Source: Yuukianura sp. NJ FZ-2021
Taxonomy: Eukaryota
Direction: 5' to 3'
DNA: 64,000 nucleotides
Assembly (NCBI GenBank): GCA_046563655.1
Contig: CM102289.1
Location: 2,356,001 to 2,420,000, forward strand
The translations under genes were made by a program, and so were the position numbers. This document shows positions 4,235 through 19,200 of this stretch, in pieces (positions within the stretch are counted from its first letter, which is position 1; every line of letters begins with the position of its first letter). Under the pieces are notes generated by a model. That model had not been told where the DNA came from. It saw nothing but the letters and a program-made list of their open reading frames with translations, and searched no databases.

Positions 4235-4443
4235 GCAAACAATTTCATCACACAAAGAAACAAAGCCTATACATTTCAGTCAAATTAAAACAGAAACTGA
4301 CTTTCTAATAAAACAAAATCAGTGCAGTATTCCATCATTTCAGAAATTTCACTAATTCTTTTTTATAATACATAAATACAACTTTTTTTTCCTTTTTCAT
4401 AACTTCGACTTTCTGGCTTTTTATTTCGAAATACAACATTTAT

Positions 4444-4884
4444 TTATTTAACTTTTTTGGCCAAATGGTGACTAACTAGTTCATAGCCGTTGTTCAAGTA
4501 GAGTCGATGAGCGTCTTTTCGCGGGTAACTACTACTATCAATTGACATGTTGACACAATTTTCATGTTTAGCAAGATCATCTGCGAATTTCAATAGTTTA
4601 CCAGCGAAACCTTTACGTTGACTGGCAGAAATCGTGCATAGGTGGTTGATACTTAGCGTTTTTCCATCGTAAAGGTGATTTTGCATTCTCAGTCCCATGA
4701 TTGCTTCTACTTTGCCCTCTTGACCTTGAATGTAGAATAGCCTGTAGCGATCTTCTTTTCGTAGTAGCTGCACTCTTTCTACAAATTCATTTTGAACTAT
4801 TACATCAAGTTCAAAAAATACTGGCCAGCAGAGCTCAATTTCTTGAGGAGTCTTGGCTTCTTGAATGATAACTTCATTAGACAT
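4444..4884 (-). CDS. GNAT-family N-acetyltransferase, bacterial-type, 146 aa, no coding introns
   Basis: MSNEVIIQEAKT... with acetyl-CoA-binding motif A (LCTISASQRKGFAGKLL) and C-terminal DAHRLYLNNGYELVSHH. Predicted 5'UTR intron 5108-4901 (GTGAGT...TTTTCAG). Confidence 0.85.
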   Translation of the reverse strand: MSNEVIIQEAKTPQEIELCWPVFFELDVIVQNEFVERVQLLRKEDRYRLFYIQGQEGKVEAIMGLRMQNHLYDGKTLSINHLCTISASQRKGFAGKLLKFADDLAKHENCVNMSIDSSSYPRKDAHRLYLNNGYELVSHHLAKKVK

Positions 4885-5482
4885 ATTGGGATTTGCAAAT
4901 CTGAAAATTAAAAAGTAAAATTTTTCAATTAAATAAAATTCCAATTCTAAAAATCTGAAACTAAAATGCGTTTGAGAATTCAAATAGGGAAGTATAGTAC
5001 AGCTTTTTGTCTATGCTCAGCATGGAGATGGACCGTTTCAAATTTTTTGAAACTTTGTTTGAATGAAAAATATGCTCAAATCATAGAATTAAAAACGATC
5101 TCACTCACCGGCTAAGGATGAACCCTAGTTGTTGCTTCCTTTACACATAAGATTAGACGAACTAAGATTCTAATAAAAGTTCCACATCATTTGAAATTCA
5201 TTTTTTCCACTAACTTCAAGAATTTCAAATCTCACGCAAATTGTAGATCAGAAATTGGAAATTGTTTTTCTGAGAAGATGCAGTGCATTTTATATTACTA
5301 GTGTTTTATACTCATGTAAAAATTTGTACTTTAATGTGTTAAAATAAATAATAAAACTAATAACTGTACAAACAAATTAGCTTAAAAACTAATTAACTGC
5401 GAATTAATTAACTCTCGAGGAATTAAATAACTATAACCTGAAAGTTGAACTATACCACACCTACACTTTTTAATTTTCTCGC

Positions 5483-6863
5483 TTATTTGAATTTTCTTCT
5501 TATACTTTTTTCTACAAGTGATCTAAGCTCCTCGTCATCTTCCGTAGCACACAATTGTCCTCGTCTATTTACACTCTTGAAACTAGATAAGTCAATTGCC
5601 TTTGGATCTTTAGAGGGCGTCAGCAGCCACAAAAGCGCTGCAACTCCAATTCCAAGCGTCAAGGTCGTGTCAAGCCCCAAATATTCTAAGCCAGTTGTTC
5701 CCAGGAACCAAAAAACAGCCAATCCCACTAAAGTTGTAATTTGACTTGCTGTTGGCGCCAAAATCAATGTTTCAACTGCATCAACCAATCTCTCAATTGG
5801 GTTCAAGCGTTCTTCTGACCCCATGCTTCTTCCTTCCGATCGACATTTTTGCACATTTTTCAAACTTTGGAGATTTTCACTGGAATCTTCTTCTTTTGAG
5901 TCTGCTCGAGCCAACGCCGCTGCGCCTGCCTCTTCCCCTGGAGGAGTGGTTCCATGTGATTTGGTCAGAAAGTGAAAAGATCAAAAGTGAAATGATCAGA
6001 AAAAAAAGGTCAGAAAAGGAAGGAACGTAACCAAACCTAACCTTAGATCTTTTGAATTCTGACCTTTTCACTTCTGATCATTTCACTTCTGACCAAATAT
6101 TTCTGACCATTTCACCTGCTACGGGAGGAGTGACCAACTCCGCTGGAACGCCAGCTAGAGCTGCAAGGGCTTCGACTTGTTCTTGTCTTATTTGAGTAAG
6201 ACGTGGACTATCGGCGCGTAAGGAAACGTTGATACCAAACATTACAATGGCCATGACGAGATTTGCTATAATGAAGGGTACAAGCAGAATGGCTTGCACA
6301 GCGGTAAAAAATGGTGCAGCACCTTGTTCCACCGGAAGTGCGGGAAGCGGAACTCCAGGCGAAGGAAGTCCTTGACGATTGGCAGGGTTGCGATGATTTA
6401 TGACTTCGTAACTAACGTCTTCTTCTGAGTCGGATTCTGCCGATTCGTCAGACTCCACTTTTTCCAGTGATTCTGATTTTGCTTTTTCAGAACTTTGTGG
6501 TTGAGTTGACTCATCGCCTGATTTTTGTGGAACAGTCAAAGTTAGGTTCAGCGTCTGGAGTAACTTGGTGGGATCTGTGATTCCGAGAATGACTAAATTT
6601 GTGTAGTTATTTTTGAAGGCTTCGTAAGTTTCCCATTGAGAACCCAACTCTTGTTTGAATTCATTAACTTTGTTTTGAATAAATTTTGGAACTGGCAGTA
6701 TTTGTTGTGAAGCATTCACGAAGCAAAGGATCCAAATAAACTGAATTCTGTTAATTCAAATTTAAAAAAATAAATCTAAAGAAGCAGAAAACAAAAGTAG
6801 AATTTAAAAACTACACTGCAATAAATGACTTAGAAATATCTAATATTACCCTATTCGTGCCAT
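5483..6863 (-). CDS. Orphan protein with signal peptide and hydrophobic segments (~365 aa); exons 6863-6850, 6747-6116, 5937-5483
   Basis: Splicing gives MARIGIQFIWILCFVNA/SQQ... The ORFs 6078-6719 and 5483-5914 join in frame when the MITE-derived intron 6115-5938 is removed. No recognisable domain. Confidence 0.65.
5948..6123. mobile_element. Foldback/Mutator-like MITE forming an intron of the orphan gene
   Basis: Inverted arms built of GGTCAGAAAGTGAAA / TTTCACTTCTGACC units. Termini GGTTCCATGTGA and TCACCTGCTACG. Direct repeat GGAGGAGT at 5940-5947 and 6124-6131. Confidence 0.85.
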
Positions 6864-8044
6864 TCCATGCACTTTATAATAGGTTTGTGTTGCTGTAAAC
6901 TTCAATCCAAAAACCTTAATGTGTTACTGTACTCTCAAAATCTACACAATGTGTGTCCATTTTTAGAAGAAAAATAAAACCACTACAATATCTTATGTCA
7001 CTTGTTCTATTGGCTGTCGCTTTTCTTCTAATGTGAGTCATAAATGAAAGTGAGTCTTCGCAAATCAATGAAATATGGGACATGAAGACATGATAAACTT
7101 GATTTGAAACTTTCTTTTTTAAACTTGTCAGGCCAGAATTTAAAAGCAGACATAAGTGTGATAAGTTTGATTATAACCCAACCAAGCAATGGGACTTGGC
7201 ATTTGATACATCGTATATGTATAGCCTGCCACTATTTTTCTCAACCCGTTCCACTTGTACTGCAGGAATTTCAAGCCCGCAGCTTGCAAAATGGCTGAAA
7301 ATCGGCAACTTGCCCGAACGTGGCTGCCAATAAAGCTCTTTCTGGAAGCCCGTCTGCAGCCCGCGCAATCTACGCAAAGTTAGCTTGCAATAAAACAATA
7401 AATTGTGTTATTCATTACAACCACTTCAGATACTCCGTTTTCCTTTAATTTCCATTGTTTAAACGCGCTATAGTTCGTATATGCTATGGGACACAACATT
7501 ATAGAGTAACCAAAAACGCTATCCAATTTTACTTTTCAAGAAACAAATTTTACTGTTTCTTTCTTCATTTTTTGTGAGATTTGAAAGTTCAAGGCAAACA
7601 ATAACCAACACTCACGTTAGTACAACTGCTAACTTTGAATTGCGTACTATATTTTTTAAGTTTCAAAATTTAGCCCTTTTGAAATTGCCAGAAAATAACA
7701 AGCTAACTGTGCGAAGTTTCAAAAAAAAAAAGGTGAATTTCCGAAAACGTAAATATATGTGTTTTTGTAAACAAAATTGAAAAATATATTTTTTGGTTAC
7801 AAAGATAAGTATACTAATATTCATGTTAACTTTCAAAACAAAATAAATGGCTACAAAATTGATTCTTTTCTCCCACGAAGTTTAGCTTACACATGTAAAT
7901 TTCTATCTTAATTATATTTACAACACAAATTATACTAATAGATTATACTAATTAAAATAATATCTAGTTTAATTATTTTAACAACTTGGTTTTCCAGAAA
8001 AAAGATATGGATTTCGTGTCTATTTTATGATCTTTTAAGAATAA

Positions 8045-9045
8045 ACCGGTTGTAAACCGCCCATACTGATAATAGCGAAGCAATAGGCCCCCCGAAGGGG
8101 GTTTGTTCCCTACCACTTTCCTGCCTCCCCCCCGGGGGGAGTGGGGGTATGTTTTGCCGCTTTTTTGCTCCGCACCCCAGGAAGCGTGGGGGTGTGTTCC
8201 CCCCACTTCCCCGTCCCCCCCCAGGAGGCGTGGGGGTGTGTTCCCCCCACTTTCCCGCCCCCCCCCCAGGAAGCGTGGGGGTGTGTTCCCCCAACTTTTC
8301 CGCCCTTCCCCAGGGGGTGTTGAAAGGTGAGACGTGACAGCTGAGGCGTGACAGGTGACAGGTGAGACGTGACAGGTGACACCCGGCAAGTGACACTTGA
8401 GGGTGACAGGTGACACCCGGTATGTGACAGGTGACACCCGGCAAGTGACACTTGAGGGTGACAGGTGACACCCGGTATGTGACAGGTGACACCCGGCAAG
8501 TGACACTTGAGGGTGACAGGTGACACCCGGCAAGTGACAGGTGGCAGGTGACACCCGGTGGACACAGTGCATGAGTGTGTAAAGTGTCTATGTCAACTGC
8601 GTAATAGATTTTTTGCTAAGCAGAGAACCAAGTCCCACGCCAATTGCCTTCCCAGTCTCACAAGAAGAGTTTTTGTTACACACACTTGCAAGTGACCTTT
8701 GAAATCGATTTTGACCCGGAAGCAGGTGACCTAGGGTCACACATTACACACAAAAGTTGTTCCCCTCGATGAGATGAACAACTTTTGTAGAAGTCATTTT
8801 CCCGGTTACCAGGGATAAAACCGGTTGACCTTGACCTTTGACCCGGAAGGAGTTAACACGCGGGGGTCATATTCAATAGTGACCAAGCCCGGGTCATGAC
8901 ATGGTCACTGGTGAAAACCGGAATCAAATCGGACCAGTAGTTTCTGAGATAATTAATCTGGACAGACAGACAGACGGACAGACAGACAGACAGACAAACC
9001 ACTTTTATCATAATAGCTTCGCTATTATAATAATGAGCGGAAAAT
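8045..9045. mobile_element. Non-autonomous Helentron/HINE (DINE-1-like) element with internal minisatellites
   Basis: Subterminal inverted repeats ATAATAGCGAAGC (~8069) and GCTTCGCTATTAT (~9015), a small hairpin near 8047, and a (GACA)n tract at 8961-8996. Internal GGGGTGTGTTCCCCC repeats at 8095-8320 and GTGACAGGTGACACCCGG repeats at 8325-8565. Confidence 0.7.
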
Positions 9046-9867: not shown

Positions 9868-10175
9868 CAAGGTTCAAGTAGCAACGAAATAGTTTTTCTT
9901 TAACAGGTTAGCTAATAAGTCTCTCTTTTTTTTCAAAAATTTTGCTGCAAACAAATATACAGCAAACATCCCACTGATTTTCCCCCAACTTATGCAAAAA
10001 TTTAACAGTTTGCACAAACAGGAACGTTCCAAATGAAAAAAAAAGTTCGAAGGAAAAATTTCCCGGGAAACGAGAGTTACCGATAATTTTTGAAATTTTG
10101 AAAATTAAAAGAAAAAAAAACAACATATTGCCTAACCTGTTACAGGAAAAACTATTTTCTTATTTACAAACATCG
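9868..10175. mobile_element. CAAGGTT-family MITE in the predicted PKS 5'UTR intron (9860-10252)
   Basis: Begins CAAGGTT, has internal ACAGGTTAG/CTAACCTGT inverted blocks and a degenerate end AACATCG. Flanked by GGTAAGACT / GGTAAGACC. Confidence 0.7.
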
Positions 10176-10262: not shown

Positions 10263-13200
10263 ATGGGTTCCACGACAATTGGTTCTGGTACGCCTATAAC
10301 CACAAAACAATATGAAATGAGAGATGCAATTGCAATCATTGGAATGAGCTGTAGATTTCCGGGTGCGAATAACGCGAAGGAGTTTTGGGAAGTGCTTTGC
10401 TCTGGTCAAGACGCCATTCGGTCATTTCCGGAGGAAAGAGCACAGGAAGCCAAAAATCAATTTGGGATGGATTCGGACATCAAGGCGGGCTTTTTAAAAT
10501 GTAGAGTGGACGAATTCGATGCTCAATTTTTTGGAATTAGCCCTAGAGAGGCCCCATTGATTGATCCTCAGCAGAGACTTCTTTTGGAGGTTACATGGGA
10601 AAGCTTGGAAGACGCAGGAATCAACGCTCACGAACTCAAAAGCACTTCGACTGGCGTATTCACTGGGATTTGGCAACCAGATTACGATAGGATTCTGCAC
10701 ACTACGACAAAGGATGCAAATGACTTGTTCCATCGCTACCTTGGAAACGCTTTTAGCGCAACTGCATCGCGGGTGTCTTACTGCCTTGGCCTACATGGTA
10801 CAAAACCAAGGTTGCTATAGCGACCATTTATTCAAATGCGATAGCAGGTTATGTCATAACTCACTATTCTCCAAAAACTTTTGGACGAATTTTGTATTAA
10901 TCCCATTTGGTTTATATGGCGCAAGGTCAACAAATTGCAGAAAATTTAAAAACAAACAATTTTTGTTTAAATGGGAGTAATGGCATAACCTGTTGAGGAA
11001 AAATAAAAGAAAAACTTCGATTTAAATAATGTTGGTACAAAACAGGAAAAAAAATTAACTTCCCTACGTTTTATAAAGTTACTGAATTTTTTAAATTTGA
11101 TTTTTAGGCCCGGCAATTGCACTCGAATCCGGATGCTCTTCATCCCTTGGCGCCATACATTTGGCCTGTCAAAGTCTTCTTAATGGAGAATCTTCTCTTG
11201 CTATTGCGGGTGGCGTCAACTTAATCCTGATTGGAGCGAATCCGTTTACAAATGCTACGGAAACCGAAGGAGACTCCATTGTGCTCTCGAAGGATTTCAA
11301 GTGTAAAACATTTGACGAATCTGCTAATGGATTTGTGCGGTAAGACATAAATTTTTTGGCACAAATATGAAATGCTTATAAAACTGAATTAAAAAAAAAT
11401 AACGCATGGCAGAATGCAAATAATCAACAATGTGTTGTATAACCTAACAGAGCGGAAGGTTGTGGCGTTTTGATTTTGAAGAAATACGAAGAGGCAGTGG
11501 ATACTGGGTGCCACATTTTGGGAATTGTTCGCGGCAGTGCAATAAATAACGACGGAAACGGAAGCAGTTTTGGAACTCCGAGTGCGCATGCTCAAGCAAT
11601 GGTTTTCGAAAAGGCTCTTGAAAAAGCTGGAGTGACGCCAGATCAAGTTTCATTCCTCGAAGCTCATGGAACTGGGACTCCTGTTGGTAAGCATATTTAA
11701 CTGCCTTCATATTTCCTTTTTAAAGCAAACTTTTAAATATTTTTCTATGTAAGTGTAGGTGATCCAATCGAAATGGAAGCCATTCGGTGCGTTTATTCAA
11801 AAAATCGAACGTCTCCTCTTTACATCAGCTCTGTCAAGACTAACATAGGACATTGTGAAGCTGCCGCTGGAATTGCCAGTGTCATCAAAGCAATTCTCTG
11901 CATTCAAAAGAAGCTTCTTCCTCCGCATTTGAACTTGAACAAACTCAATCCATACATCAACTTAGACAAAATTCCAGCGATTATTCCAACGGAAACTACC
12001 GAATGGAAATCAGAGCAACGAATCTGCGCAGTAAGCTCCTTCAGCATGAGCGCCACTAACGTCCATGTCATTCTACAAGAACCCCAAGCAATCGCATGTC
12101 AATCCGCTTCTACTTCACACAGCGTATGCCGCCCACTTGTCATCACGGTTTCTGCAAAATCCAAAGAGGCTTTGGACGCTTTGATTCAAGGTTCGTGAAG
12201 GCACAAATGGTTTTTTCTACAACAGGTTGTCCTATAACTCCGGGTTTTTTAATTTTGTGCTTTCAAAAATTAAACCGGTTCATCTTGACCTCCGTTTAGG
12301 TTACAAGTTTATCTTTTTTCCCTTGTAGTAATAGTCTACCAGTTGGAAAAAATTAGAGGAAAAAACTCAAACAAAATTGGTGCAGGAGGTTTGAAGTAAG
12401 ATTTTTGGAAACCCTGAGTTATTGGACAACGTGTTGTAGGAAATACGACTCGGTTGTCAAATAACCTTGCTTTGATTGCAGCTTATGTCAAATATTTGGA
12501 AAATCATACGAACATCACCCTGGAAAACTTTGCTTATGCTGTGAACGTCACTAGGGCGCCATTGCCGCACCGAATTGCTATTACTGCGTCAACGACGCAA
12601 GAAGTTCTGGAAAAATTGAAACGCCAAGATTGGTCATACGCAAAATCATCAAACGTTAAATCAAAAATTGCCTTTCTGTTTCCCGGACAGGGTTGCCAGT
12701 ATGCAGAAATGGTGAAGAATCTCGCAGAATCTTTTCCTGTTTTGCAAAATGCATTGGATGAAGCAGATGAGATATTTGAAGCTTGCCTTCATAAAAAGCT
12801 GACGCATGTCATATGGGAAAACCCAAATCTGTTGAACCAAACACTTTACTGTCAACCTGCAATTGTTGCTGTTGAATACGCCTTGGCACAACTTTGGAAG
12901 TCTTTCGGAATTGTTCCGGATGCAGTTCTGGGACACAGCTTAGGAGAAATAGCTGCGGCGATTTCAGCAGGAGTTTTGTCATTGGAGCAAGGTTTGAAAT
13001 TAATTATTGCTCGTAGTCGTTTAGTCGATAAATTGGAGGAAGGATCTATGTTAGCTGTTAGCGGCAATGAGCAAAGGACAAGATTTCTGATTGCTGAATT
13101 TCAAAAATCCCGCCAGAGTGAATGGATTGACGTAGCAGCAGTAAATTCAAATAGTGAAGTCGTGGTATCTGGCCCTAAAAAAACTATTACGGAATTTGCT

Positions 13201-16200
13201 GAATATTGCCGTGAACAACGCGTGGAAACAATTGCAATATCAGCACAACATGCCTTTCACTCAAGGCAAATGGACGATATCCTCAAACCATTTAGAACTG
13301 AACTAGAATCGATTTTAGAAAAAACAGGAAGTGCACCAATCATAAAGTATATTTCGGGAACAGAAGCCAAAGTTGTTGAAACTAGTTTAGCATTTGGTCC
13401 TGACAATTGGGAAAAACACCTACGAAATCCAGTTCGTTTTTCGCGCGCAATTCAAACTTTGCTGAATGATGAATTCCGGACGTTTGTTGAAATTGGGCCC
13501 AGTCCTGTCCTTCTTGGCATCACAATGACAAATGCTGCCGAAACTTCTTTCACCGAACTGAACCTTGTACCTTCCGCCCGGCGTACGGATCCTACACGAC
13601 TTACATTTCACGATTCACTAATCAAGTTATATTTACAAGGACACAGAATTAACTGGAGAGGGCAGACGCCCAACAAAGGCCAACATCTCCAAATTCCGAA
13701 GTATCAATTTCAACGACAGTCATACTGGATAGGACAAAACGTTGACCACAACATGTCGGATGCTGCCCAAATTGGGTCATGTTTTAGTGGCGTTGCGAAT
13801 CAAGACAAAATACATCCGCTCCTCGGTTTAGAAGTCTTCATGCCAGCTTCATTACGCACTTTTGCAAACTTCGTAACGGTTAAACACTATCCATATTTGG
13901 CGGATCACATCGTAGCTGGACTTAAAGTATACCCCGCTGCTGCTTTCATTGAAACTGCATTTGCGGCTGCGCGAGAAATTTTACAGGAAGGCGGTACACT
14001 CAAATGCCCGTTGACCTTACAAAAATTTGGAATTGATGCGGCACTTGACATTGCTACTGGAGTGGAGTTGTATACGACAGTAGAGCAACTTGAAAGTGAA
14101 CATGGACTTACCTACAACTTGGAAATTTTGAAAAAGGTTAAAAATGGAACATTCAAACGGAATATTTCTACAAAATTTGTACCAGGTTGCAAAGCTTTAA
14201 ACAAAAAGCAACTGGATATCAGCGACATCAAACGGCGATTACAAAAGAAAGAAAGTGGAGCAATCGATCGTGTTTATTCTGCCATCGCCAGTAGGGGAAT
14301 AGAATTCGGACCGACATTTCAAAGCATCAAATCCGTCTACACATCAGACAATGGTGAATTTCTAACAGAAATTTGTCTTCAGGAAAATGCGACCTCTGCC
14401 GAATACATTTGTCATCCTGTTGTGATTGATTCATTACTTCAAACAAAAGCGCTCCAAATATACTTTGTAGATGCGAGTAACAATATGAACGTCGGTGACA
14501 ACAAAATCTGTTTACCAATTGCAATCGAACAAATCACGTGGTTTTCGGAAACACTCACGCCGAAACTCTACACTTACTGCTTTCCAAACGAAATAGATGG
14601 CAACTCTTCCGTTTTTTTGGTAAACGAAGATGGGAATTTGCTACTTGAATTGAAGGGGGTAGAGCTAATTGAAACTACTGCTGAAATAGTGTTGAACTCA
14701 ATTGAACATCAAATCCCAAATGACATGAATTTTTCAGCGGAGGTTTGGCGCCCAGTTTCAAATTATACTAAAAACATAGTATCAAGTGTTGTCGAACATT
14801 TTTGCGAAGTTTCGGCTGAATCCGAATGCATTCGGAAGTGTTTAGACGACATCCAACAAATACACGATTTCCATAAATCGGACGATGATTACGATAAACC
14901 TGGATTGCTTGCAATTATGAATGCAGTGCAAGTTTGTGGGTGGCCATATCAGGTACATTACGAAACTGAAAAAAAAACTTTATTATTTAAAGATATTATT
15001 AATTAAACTAATTAGCTAATATCTATATCTGAATTCCAATTTGTTGTAATTTTTATTCCCTGCGATAATGTTCCAGGTCGGAGCGATTTTGAACCCAGAA
15101 GATTGGAAATGTCGAATTCCAGTGGGCGTACCACAGCAAGTCGTCGACTTTTATTTGTACAAGCTTGAAATGACAGGATACCTCCAAAGTGTACAAGTCT
15201 CTGAAGGTTCAGGGTATCGCGTACTGCGACAATTGGAATCACCGTCAAATTGTGAAAAACTTGTTCGGGAAATAGGAGTTAAGGCAAGAAATGAAATATT
15301 CAGTTTCAATATGGCTTGGATGGTTAAGTACTGCGATGAGCTGCCACTAGTTCTGAGTGGAAAAATGACGCCTATAGAATACCACTTTCCCACCGATACT
15401 ACAAAACTAGGTGCAATGAAATTCTACACTGAGGCAATAGCTTACCGACATCAGTGCGTCATGGCCATTGACTGTTTGATTCAAACTGTTAAGAATCTAA
15501 CTACTCCGAATCCGAATACATCCGACGAACATGGAAAAACGGTTTATCCCAACGAAAAAACCTTGACGACACAAATTTTGGAAGTTGGGGGTGGAGGTGG
15601 AATGGCCACTGAGTTGCTCATTTCTCAGTTGAAATCAACCTCACATTCTTTTGAATACACGTTTACAGACATTTCACCATTTCTTGTCGATGCAGCTAAG
15701 AAAACGTTTTCAATCTACCCTGAATTTGCTTTCCAAACTTTCGATATTGAGAAAGATCCACTTCCGCAAGGCTATTTGCCAGAATCATTTGATTTAATAT
15801 TTGCATGCCAGGTATTGCATGCAACCCGAGATTTGGCAGAAACTCTACAAAACTTGAAGGTTCTTCTGCGATCTGGTGGGCGCTTAATTTTTACAGAGTC
15901 GTTCGGAATTATGGAATTTTTTGATTTGACTTTTGGACTGTTAGAAGGTTGGTGGAGATTTAGCGACTTTAGAAAAGAAGAAGGAAACTTAACACCAGTC
16001 GTTTCTTCCGATAAATGGCGCGAACTTTTGATCAGAAATGGATTTGAAAATGTGAAAACAATCGAAACGGCGTACCCGGGTGGAGTAGTAGTAGCTACTA
16101 AATCAAACGCACAGTTGTTGCCTACTGCTGTGCCAATGCATGGTGAACATATTTCAAAGCCTAGCTGGGTCACGGTATCGGATCAAAATCCATTGGCTGC

Positions 16201-19200
16201 AAGTGTGATCGAATTACTACGACAGTCTAATAGAAATGTGACAACGTACAACGTTGAAGACTGCATTCTGAAGGATGTATTGCTAGACGTGAATTTGGAA
16301 GGAGTTTTGTTCTTTTGGACAGGAAGCGACGATGAAGAAGGTTTCGCCGGTGAACAAGAAAAGTACATTGGCAGCCTTCTCCGCCTCCTCAAATTTTACG
16401 TCGTCACAGAAAAAGCGAAAGGCTCCAAAATTCGAATTGTGACTCGCGGGGCGTTTCAAATTGGAGACGACGAAATTCCAAGTCCCAACAAAACAGCGCT
16501 GTGGGGACTTGTGAGAGCGTTTCGCAACGAATGTCAACGGTACGATCCTTTCCTCATAGACTTCGGTCAAGTAGAAGGCAAACACGAAAGTCACCAGCTA
16601 TTTGCTACTCTGTTTACCCCAAAAGCCGAAGAAGCAACCGCTTTTCGAGGTGACCGGACATACGTGCTTCGATTCGTGGATGAACTGCCGAAACGACACA
16701 AAGTCAAACTACCAAATTGCGAGCGCTATCGGTTCATAAATCCGCCGAGTAATTGCTTCACTGATATTAAAATTGGACCTGACACTGCTAGAGATCTAAG
16801 GGACACGGATATTGAAGTTGCCGTCAGAGCATGCGCACTAAACTTCAAAGACATTTTTTGTGTACTAAAACCAAAGGAATTTCAAATTCCAAAAGAACAT
16901 CTGGAACATATCGGCCTCGACGTTTCTGGAGTCGTGACCCGAGTTGGGTCAAAAGTTACACGACATCAAGTTGGAGACGAAGTAGCCGGAATATCTTCGG
17001 CGTGTGGTATTGCGAGTCATACAGTATCCTCTGAATTCGGATTTTGGAAAAAACCTAAAGAAATTTCGTTTGCGGCTGCTGCTGGATGCCCTACAGTGTA
17101 TCTGACAGCACACTATGCACTACATCACTTAGCCAAAATACAACCCGGCGACCGTGTGTTGATTCATGCTGGAGCTGGCGGCGTTGGCCTTGCAGCTATT
17201 GATATTGTAAAGAATTGTCAAGGCCAGGTTTTTGCAACGGCCGGATCAAAACGAAAACGGACCTATTTGCGAAGATTTTGCGGAGTAAGTCAGATCTACA
17301 ACTCTAGAAACACCAGTTTTGGGCAACAAATTCTTGATGAGACAAATGGGGTGGGTGTTGACATCGTGCTGAATTGCCTCACCGGACCAGGATTCAAAGA
17401 AGCATCACTTGCAGCGACTGCGCTCAACGGAAGATTCGTTGAATTGGCCAAGCTGAACATTTGGACAACCGCAGAGATCAATCAGCTCCGTCCAGACGTT
17501 GACTACAAATTTATTGAGTTGGTTTCTATGGATTTCATGGAAAAGGAGACCTTCCAGATACAATGCGCAAGCTTGAACTTAAATTTCGCGACCAGCTTCC
17601 GAAACTTCCATGTAAAGTTTTTCCTCTAGAGGATATTCAATCCGCTTTTTATTACTTTCAAGAAGCAAAACAAATTGGAAAAGTCGTATTGCGCATGCCG
17701 GCAACAGAAGTTAACAACGGAGCTCTAATTCACATAAACAAAATCTTTAATACGTGTTCCACTTATCTTATTACTGGTGGCCTTGGTGGAATAGGAATTG
17801 AGTTGGCAAAATGGATGACAATCAAGGGAGCTGCAAATATTGTTTTGGTTGGAAGAAAACAAGCTTCTACCCATGCGCAGGCAGTTATTGATGATTTAAG
17901 GAACAAAGGACTCAACATTCTTGTTTTAAATCTGGACATTTCAAAAGAAGAAGACTGTGACAGAACTGTTCCGCGCAGTTGAAGATTCCAAAACATTTCC
18001 GCCGATCAAAGGAATTTTCCATGCTGCTGGAGTACTGCACGACGCAGCATTTGAAAACCAAAGTTGGGAATCACTGAACGCCTCACTTGCTCCAAAAGCC
18101 CACGGCGCATGGAATTTGCACTGTCGCTTTCTAAACACAGATTTGGAATTTTTTGTTTTATTTTCTTCTGCAGCGTCACTGTTTGGCAGCATCGGTCAAG
18201 CACCTCACGCAACTGCAAACAAGTACTTGGATGGGTTCGCGTGGTATCGGCATTCGCTCGGCTTGCCTGCAACGAGCATCAACTGGGGATTGTGGTAAAT
18301 AATTTTGGTGTATTTTGAAACTAAATTTTATAAATCTCCCCATTTTTTTCAAGAACCTATTCCTGCGGCAAATTATTTTTTATTCATTTTTCCATTATTT
18401 AGGAAAGACATTGGAGCAGGAGTTGGTGTCACAAATGACCAAGAAAATAGGCTTGGCCTTAAGGGATTTCCTCCAAGGGACGGTTTCAGGGCATTAGAAG
18501 AACTGATGACTTCAGACTTGCCACAAGTAGCATTCGTACCCACACGCGGCTGGAAAATTATGAAAAGCTTCTTCTCTCTTGGTCACTATTTCGATGAAGT
18601 AGAAATTCACAAGGATACGAGTGACAGATTAGAAGAATTGCAAAAGGAAATTGATGTCATCAAAACCATGTGAACCCGAGTCTACGACAAGAAAAACTGC
18701 GTGTAAGTTCTTGAGTCAATTATCAAAGAAACACTGAGGCTTCCAAAAGACGAAGTTCTGGACATCGACCAGCCACTTGAGTGAAATGGGAGTCGATTCT
18801 CTTATGGGTATGGAAATGAAGACACGTCTAGAAAAGTTAACGAGTCGTAATCTTCCAATCAGCACGCTTCAAGAGTACCGTACTATTCGGAAGCTGTCAG
18901 CGTATGTCGCTCGGGTTCTAGACGACGACAAAGATTCAAACGCATCTTCCATTGATCAAAAGCATGTTTTAAGTTCGGACTCAATTTTGCCGTCCGAGCT
19001 GAAGGAAGCTTTGGAAAATGCTTCGAAGAAATCAGCAACAAACAGAGATTTTAAATCAATTCTTTTGACCGGCGCGACGGGTCACTTCGGCGCTCACGTC
19101 CTTCCAGAAATTCAGAAAATGAGCAAGGAAATTCACATATTTTGTTTGCTTCGTGCAGCTTCTGACGAAATTGCAAGAGAAATTCTTCACAAAACTCTGA

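Follow-up and report, generated by a model that had tools for sequence, protein, structure and literature searches.

A foldback transposon of 176 bp has recently inserted into a coding exon, and a haplotype with the empty site is present beside the filled one; about this we have hardly any doubt. The element lies at 5948-6123 of the window (the whole stretch of DNA analysed, 64,000 nucleotides), where it interrupts a gene on the minus strand. From its splice-like signals, we put at about even the chance that it is removed from the transcript as an in-frame intron of 178 nt. The origin of new introns is a long-standing question, for which introners, transposons that create introns, are the best-documented answer. 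At the present locus the filled and empty alleles stand side by side, with a predicted spliced product 6 nt longer than the product of the empty allele. If the element is spliced, this case joins the known introner-type introns; if it is not, it is an ordinary heterozygous disruption of an exon. The gene content of the window looks animal and includes CD36, a Reeler domain, a rhodopsin-type receptor and an ABC transporter. A protein search with the Reeler-domain ORF returned no matches at E <= 1e-8, and Rfam had no matches in the window.

A foldback element interrupts a minus-strand gene

An earlier note on this DNA had described a foldback of ~176 bp, flanked by direct repeats, that splits a gene. 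Its coordinates hold, with the refinement that the flanking direct repeat is really 9 bp long (GGAGGAGTG, 5940-5948 and 6124-6132 on the plus strand). The element itself comprises the 176 bp between the direct-repeat copies.

5940..5947, no strand: left copy of the target-site duplication, GGAGGAGT; a 9-bp direct repeat if 5948 is added
5948..6123, no strand: foldback MITE with ~15-bp GTGAAANGGTCAGAA subrepeats and inverted arms; right end possibly at 6124
6124..6131, no strand: right copy of the target-site duplication, GGAGGAGT, placed from the direct repeat and a contig joint

The element folds as a single long hairpin. Its DNA fold has a z-score of -7.2, and the RNA fold of the intron predicted below reaches -79.6 kcal/mol (z -10), a value equalled by none of 200 shuffles. 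The terminal inverted repeats match at 18 of 30 end positions, and a perfect 10-nt core, TGGTCAGAAA, sits 8 nt inside each end of the element with matching GTGA immediately outside it. The window contains 8 instances of the core octamer GGTCAGAA where 1.82 would be expected, 5 being within the element, and none of 100 shuffles reached 8. On the sense strand the element has stops in all three frames, as befits a short non-coding MITE, and its size (below ~800 bp), its terminal inverted repeats, its target-site duplication with an empty site and its many copies are all those of a MITE. A duplication of 8 bp would presumably suit hAT or P-type elements, lengths of 7-9 bp being indistinguishable here. 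No further copy of the element was found elsewhere in the 64-kb window.

Two minus-strand ORFs bracket the insert, 6078-6719 (213 aa) and 5483-5914 (143 aa), both of which the earlier note had listed. Alignment to two related proteins, P0002 and P0003, indicates that they are one gene whose coding exon was formerly continuous. The gene model is as follows.

6850..6863, minus strand: putative first exon, 14 nt, with ATG at 6863; would encode a hydrophobic N-terminus as in P0002
6748..6849, minus strand: putative first intron, 102 nt, GTAATA..AACAG, from the gene model only
6116..6747, minus strand: exon 2, with ...ELVTPPVA and the opening base of a Gly codon at its end; aligns to P0002 and P0003
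5483..5937, minus strand: exon 3, including the stop at 5483-5485; acidic linker followed by hydrophobic segments; aligns to P0002

P0002 is a continuous ORF of 360 aa with its own ATG, found at L001:7150-8232 in a metagenome contig of 11.4 kb. The upstream half of the split gene aligns to its residues 37-201 at 45% identity (E 3e-39), a region of ~165 residues that includes a near-invariant membrane segment, and the downstream half aligns to its residues 240-314 (E 4e-10), collinear with the upstream alignment. P0003 aligns to the upstream half (E 5e-22) and reads through the insertion site. The halves were placed by pairwise alignment to P0002, since in a multiple alignment that also included P0003 the second half came out in the wrong position. 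A homologue search with P0002 among 1.84 billion representative proteins gave two matches, P0002 itself and P0003. At the insertion site P0002 reads ...EIVNPNDDEDEAAAA..., P0003 reads ...ALVNPNSDP... and the window reads ...ELVTPP[VA]GEEAGAAA.... The earlier note had looked to orthologues reading VTPPGEE; both relatives are uninterrupted at the site. The acidic linker into which the element has inserted, between hydrophobic segments, differs in length among the three proteins, so that two extra residues should be harmless there.

With the putative first exon included, the spliced model has 366 codons (...VTPPVAGEE...) and the empty-site model, for which 5940-6123 is taken out, 364 (...VTPPGEE...). 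The other haplotype carries a 12-nt insertion and a 1-nt deletion in the putative first intron (places 6787 and 6832), which fits non-coding DNA. Neither half of the split gene contains a Pfam family, and among Atlas look-alikes the best score was an uninformative 0.81. The gene is probably lineage-restricted and is predicted to encode a membrane protein. The contig that carries P0002 (L001, 1-11380) has a G+C content of ~37%, similar to that of the window, and on it the homologue is intron-free and adjoins an F-box/leucine-rich-repeat-like ORF. No gene order common to L001 and the window was found, and L001 contains no copy of the 176-bp element.

An empty-site haplotype in the same sample

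A search for sequencing runs that cover the locus listed five of DNA and none of RNA, and contigs from four of the DNA runs, all public, were compared with the locus. Three of the runs (X1, X3 and X4) come from one sample, and the fourth (X2) belongs to a different study and bears a different organism label. In X1 and X3 a contig joins 5939 to 6124 and skips 184 bp, corresponding to the element plus one copy of the duplication. Nine letters at this joint can be assigned to either flank, and the match on the shorter side is 40 letters long; because those nine letters are shared we argue that the joint is direct, the intervening letters being recorded as not known. The depth of the empty-site contig (153 in X1, 214 in X3) is like that of the unique flanks, so that it looks single-copy, and since X1 and X3 share one sample the empty site counts as one observation. 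The joint was also considered as a splice product, which is ruled out by its GG..CG ends and by its length of 184 nt, not 178. The empty-site version of the gene encodes VTPPGEE. The ancestral reading that the earlier note had reconstructed, and the empty-site allele that it had proposed as a check, are thus both found in this contig, which is shorter than the window by 184 bp. In X2 a contig of a divergent haplotype begins 10 letters before 6124 and mismatches the element there, which fits the empty site, the overlap being too short to serve as a demonstration.

At least one further haplotype, 4-9% divergent, extends across positions 4400-7900 of the window beside window-identical contigs, in runs of both organism labels; one stretch has 27 differences in 306 nt. 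This suggests either very high heterozygosity or diverged gene copies at the locus. Differences between haplotypes include in-frame indels at 5534 (+3), 5853 (+3) and 6447 (+6). These indels say little about selection on the sequence 3' of the insert: they sit in triplet-like, acidic, low-complexity runs, where triplet slippage would be expected anyway. As the insertion is polymorphic, the intact downstream ORF likewise says little about selection, and with an intact haplotype present a null allele would be tolerated.

Two other differences were seen nearby. At 7314-7631, 318 bp are swapped for 6 letters in another haplotype of the same sample (joint 7313 to 7632, in X1 and X3), and no clear inverted ends or duplication were seen at this difference. 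At ~7714-7785 the summed depth rises ~20-fold in X2 only (98 against 4.7), with loose contig ends at 7714 and 7785, and this may be another small repeat.

Many copies of the element family

In the DNA runs the element behaves as a member of a transposon-type, many-copy repeat family. The two bins that span 5921-6154 have summed word depths of 37,369 and 69,304 in X1, where the flanks are mostly at 100-430; the element bins reach 29,046 and 36,562 in X3 (flanks about 100-300) and 1,875 and 1,424 in X2 (flanks ~4.5). The summed depth of the element is thus roughly 150-400 times that of its flanks in X1-X3, and because summed depth is not copy number this is read only as many copies. Dozens of loose contig ends occur at 5947/5948 and at 6123, 6124 or 6125, in all four runs. 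Contig ends stacked at these positions indicate that the ends of the family coincide with the direct repeats, and since other copies stop matching at 6123, 6124 or 6125 the length of the duplication is settled only to 7-9 bp. Among the X4 records listed, seven of eight match the element alone; their contigs are 597-9,897 nt long, and the matches show 4-15 differences per 66-133 nt.

The flank consensuses of the other copies are A+T-rich and of low agreement (0.45-0.63), which suggests that most copies of the family are not in exons. The present insertion is the one genic copy seen.

Signals of a candidate intron

In the course of events that we propose, a foldback DNA transposon of the non-autonomous type (a MITE), with copies at many loci, recently entered the coding exon and duplicated ~8 bp of target; within the sample, one or more other haplotypes still lack the insertion. 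In its present orientation the element supplies three of the four intron signals, namely the donor CAG/GTGAAA, a pyrimidine-rich 3' arm and a CTGAC motif, and the host CAG just past the second copy of the duplication would act as the acceptor. The transcript would then most likely be spliced with removal of a 178-nt phase-1 intron, and 6 extra nucleotides (Val-Ala) would remain in the acidic linker between hydrophobic segments. The outcome would be a new, transposon-made intron of the introner type.

5938..6115, minus strand: predicted phase-1 intron, 178 nt, donor CAG/GTGAAA and acceptor CTCCTCCAG/G, from sequence
5964..5968, minus strand: CTGAC branch-point-like motif, with its A at 5965, 27 nt before the last intron base

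The GT of the candidate donor stands at 6115/6114 after CAG, and the AG of the candidate acceptor at 5939/5938. Removal of 6115..5938 in silico keeps the frame and adds Val-Ala (6 nt), and the fusion of both ORFs that the earlier note had put forward is borne out on paper: excision of these 178 nt, GT..AG, gives VTPPVAGEE, a gain of two residues. The donor GT is 8 nt inside the element end; the pyrimidine arm and the branch-type CTGAC, the latter the reverse complement of the GGTCAG core of the family, are also element-borne, and the acceptor AG belongs to the host, 2 nt outside the duplication. We take CTGAC at 5964..5968 to match the branch-site consensus. Pyrimidines make up 73% of the 3' half of the candidate intron and 35% of its 5' half. 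Past the pyrimidine tract, the proposed acceptor is the first AG. Of all candidate pairs the proposed one looks best; its donor lacks what we take to be the consensus G at +5.

Local introns offer a standard for these features. Five introns of a PKS gene elsewhere in the window, verified by a stop-free join of 1,424 codons, are 72-310 nt long, have the donors GTACAA, GTAAGA, GTAAGC, GTTCGT and GTACAT, and have 10-14 pyrimidines among the last 20 nt ahead of the AG. The candidate intron, at 178 nt and with 13 pyrimidines over that stretch, falls inside the range of these five. As a foldback, one arm of which is purine-rich, the element would offer a GTGA donor near the 5' end and a pyrimidine-rich, CTGAC-bearing 3' arm whichever way round it inserted, and we infer that the structure of the family is well suited to being spliced. 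Preservation of the frame was set aside as proof of splicing: 19 of the 132 GT/AG pairs surrounding the element leave the frame intact, so that this would be expected by chance and is weak evidence.

Alternative explanations

It is quite possible that the insertion is a simple knockout of one haplotype, in which the MITE is not (or not usefully) spliced and the empty haplotype supplies the function. The protein of the filled allele would then read 12 codons into the element, to a stop at 6078-6080, or the mRNA would be degraded. That early stop and the stops in all three frames are what a knockout would have, the empty-site haplotype occurs in the same sample, chance frame-keeping GT/AG pairs are as common as noted above, and the donor is base-paired within the very stable hairpin of -79.6 kcal/mol, which could hide it from the spliceosome. 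Against a knockout, donor, pyrimidine-rich arm, branch motif and acceptor are correctly ordered and spaced, within the range of the five local introns, and the shortness of those introns (72-310 nt) together with their loose donors suggests an intron-defining spliceosome that tolerates variety. Moreover, two of the PKS introns, which must be removed for the 1,424-codon frame to be open, contain another foldback family.

Removal from the transcript need not follow the proposed sites. Insertions of Tc1 into exons of C. elegans, and of Ds or Mu into exons of maize, are removed from mRNA through cryptic splice sites, several of which may serve one insertion, and this precedent counts in favour of removal of the present element through other or several cryptic sites, or inefficiently, with a mixture of in-frame and aberrant products. 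The case here resembles Tc1 and Ds/Mu in that a DNA transposon in an exon may be removed imprecisely by the spliceosome and leave extra codons behind; in most of those cases function is reduced and the allele is a laboratory or mutant one, whereas ours comes from a natural assembly and has a predicted product in frame. AGs recur every 6 nt just downstream, and the 19 frame-keeping pairs include three more acceptors within 18 nt of the proposed one with the identical donor; examples of other pairs are donor 6115 with acceptors ending at 5932 or 5926, and donor 6122 with 5930. Against this, splicing usually takes the AG that comes first after the pyrimidine tract and branch-type motif, a place that the proposed acceptor holds, and we regard use of the other sites as improbable. 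Lastly, the 'gene' might be a decaying or never-expressed ORF, in which the insertion would be neutral and the splice reading meaningless. Its two relatives among 1.84 billion representative proteins and its want of Pfam families speak for this, but open frames are kept in both halves, the ~165 residues that are 45% identical to P0002 include the near-invariant membrane segment, and P0002 is a complete ORF of 360 aa with its own ATG; a non-functional gene thus seems to us very improbable indeed. Removal of the element as the proposed in-frame intron is the reading that we carry into the comparison below.

Comparison with known transposon-made introns

In those parts of the literature on which we draw, introners are described as MITE-like DNA transposons that create spliceosomal introns, in Micromonas, Aureococcus, dinoflagellates and others (PMC9860276; PMC11282704). 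The survey of Gozashti et al. 2022, in the sections used here, counts 27,563 introner introns in 175 of 3,325 genomes (PMC9860276). By the same sections introners have been found chiefly in protists and fungi, with just two groups of animals among their hosts, whereas the gene content of the window looks animal (PMC9860276). Sponge introners are mentioned in a 2025 paper, of which an excerpt was available (PMC12130899).

The present element shares with introners, so far as these excerpts describe them, a short non-coding body, inverted ends, a target-site duplication and insertion into a coding exon. In some introner families one splice site comes with the element, and the duplication or the neighbouring exon provides the other (PMC9860276, in part); here too one splice site would be element-borne and the other recruited at or next to the duplication, although, in comparison with those introners that recruit a site from the duplication itself, the acceptor AG is host sequence 2 nt past it. 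The site is absent from another haplotype and from the homologues, as for recently gained introners in the excerpted accounts. A few extra codons are also common to both: an Aureococcus introner lengthens the sequence by 12 bp (4 aa) compared with an isolate without the element, made up of 4 bp of element and 8 bp of duplication (PMC9860276, same sections), and the predicted addition here is 6 bp. Unlike the introner families described there, the present family has a single genic copy seen here, and its splicing is predicted from sequence.

Hairpin introns offer a further comparison. MITE-derived introns whose inverted ends pair are reviewed in PMC11282704, from which we draw on selected passages. 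The hairpin introns of the tunicate Fritillaria borealis and the non-conventional introns of euglenids, according to those passages, resemble the candidate intron in their pairable inverted ends, their transposon origin and the duplication-like repeats at their exon borders (PMC11282704). In the same passages these introns are mostly non-GT/AG and require an altered spliceosome, in contrast to the candidate intron, which has GT..AG ends and a pyrimidine tract (PMC11282704).

A second foldback family and the PKS gene

The PKS gene that contains the five verified introns has the following place in the window.

10263-18300, plus strand: PKS gene of bacterial type, KS-AT-DH-MT-ER-KR-ACP-reductase, with at least five short introns

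A search with this gene gave mostly bacterial matches (best named ~30%), together with one springtail protein at 33% and P0004 (2,023 aa) at 47%. P0004, the closest relative, is continuous across the window introns 12191-12439 and 14953-15076, and the PKS looks like a horizontally acquired gene with later intron gain.

A second foldback family, unrelated to the 176-bp element, occurs at ~9893-10150, upstream of the PKS gene, and inside the PKS introns 10798-11107 and 12191-12439. Its ends are ...AACAGGTT(A/G).. on the left and ..AAC(C/G)TGTT..AG/GAAA on the right, its termini being given also as ...AACAGGTT... and ...AACCTGTT.CAG. It is probably the family that the earlier note had treated as its first MITE family. 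In the intron at 12191-12439 the right end of the element supplies the acceptor AG and seemingly reaches ~10 nt into the exon, and the window PKS has ~10 extra residues there relative to P0004.

The idea that transposon-made introns are frequent in this genome rests on the 176-bp copy described here and on the second family in two PKS introns. The continuity of P0004 and the introns that hold the second family fit this wider idea of the earlier note and do not establish it. That two or more unrelated foldback MITE families are now adding introns to the genome, with one insertion polymorphic and the others in the PKS gene, is a tentative proposition that we think rather unlikely. If it were true, this would be among the very few animals with active introners, and the locus would provide a natural pair of filled and empty alleles with which to gauge the cost and efficiency of a newborn intron.

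Two further features of the region were recorded. At 17533-17560 and 17964-17996 of the PKS gene the homology to P0004 switches frame twice, with too little room for an intron; these switches may be either frameshifts in the gene or small indel errors in the assembly. Tandem arrays rich in G+C, built of GTGACAGGTGACACCCGG... units with periods of 45 and 55 bp, occupy 8097-8543 and give rise to long spurious ORFs on both strands.
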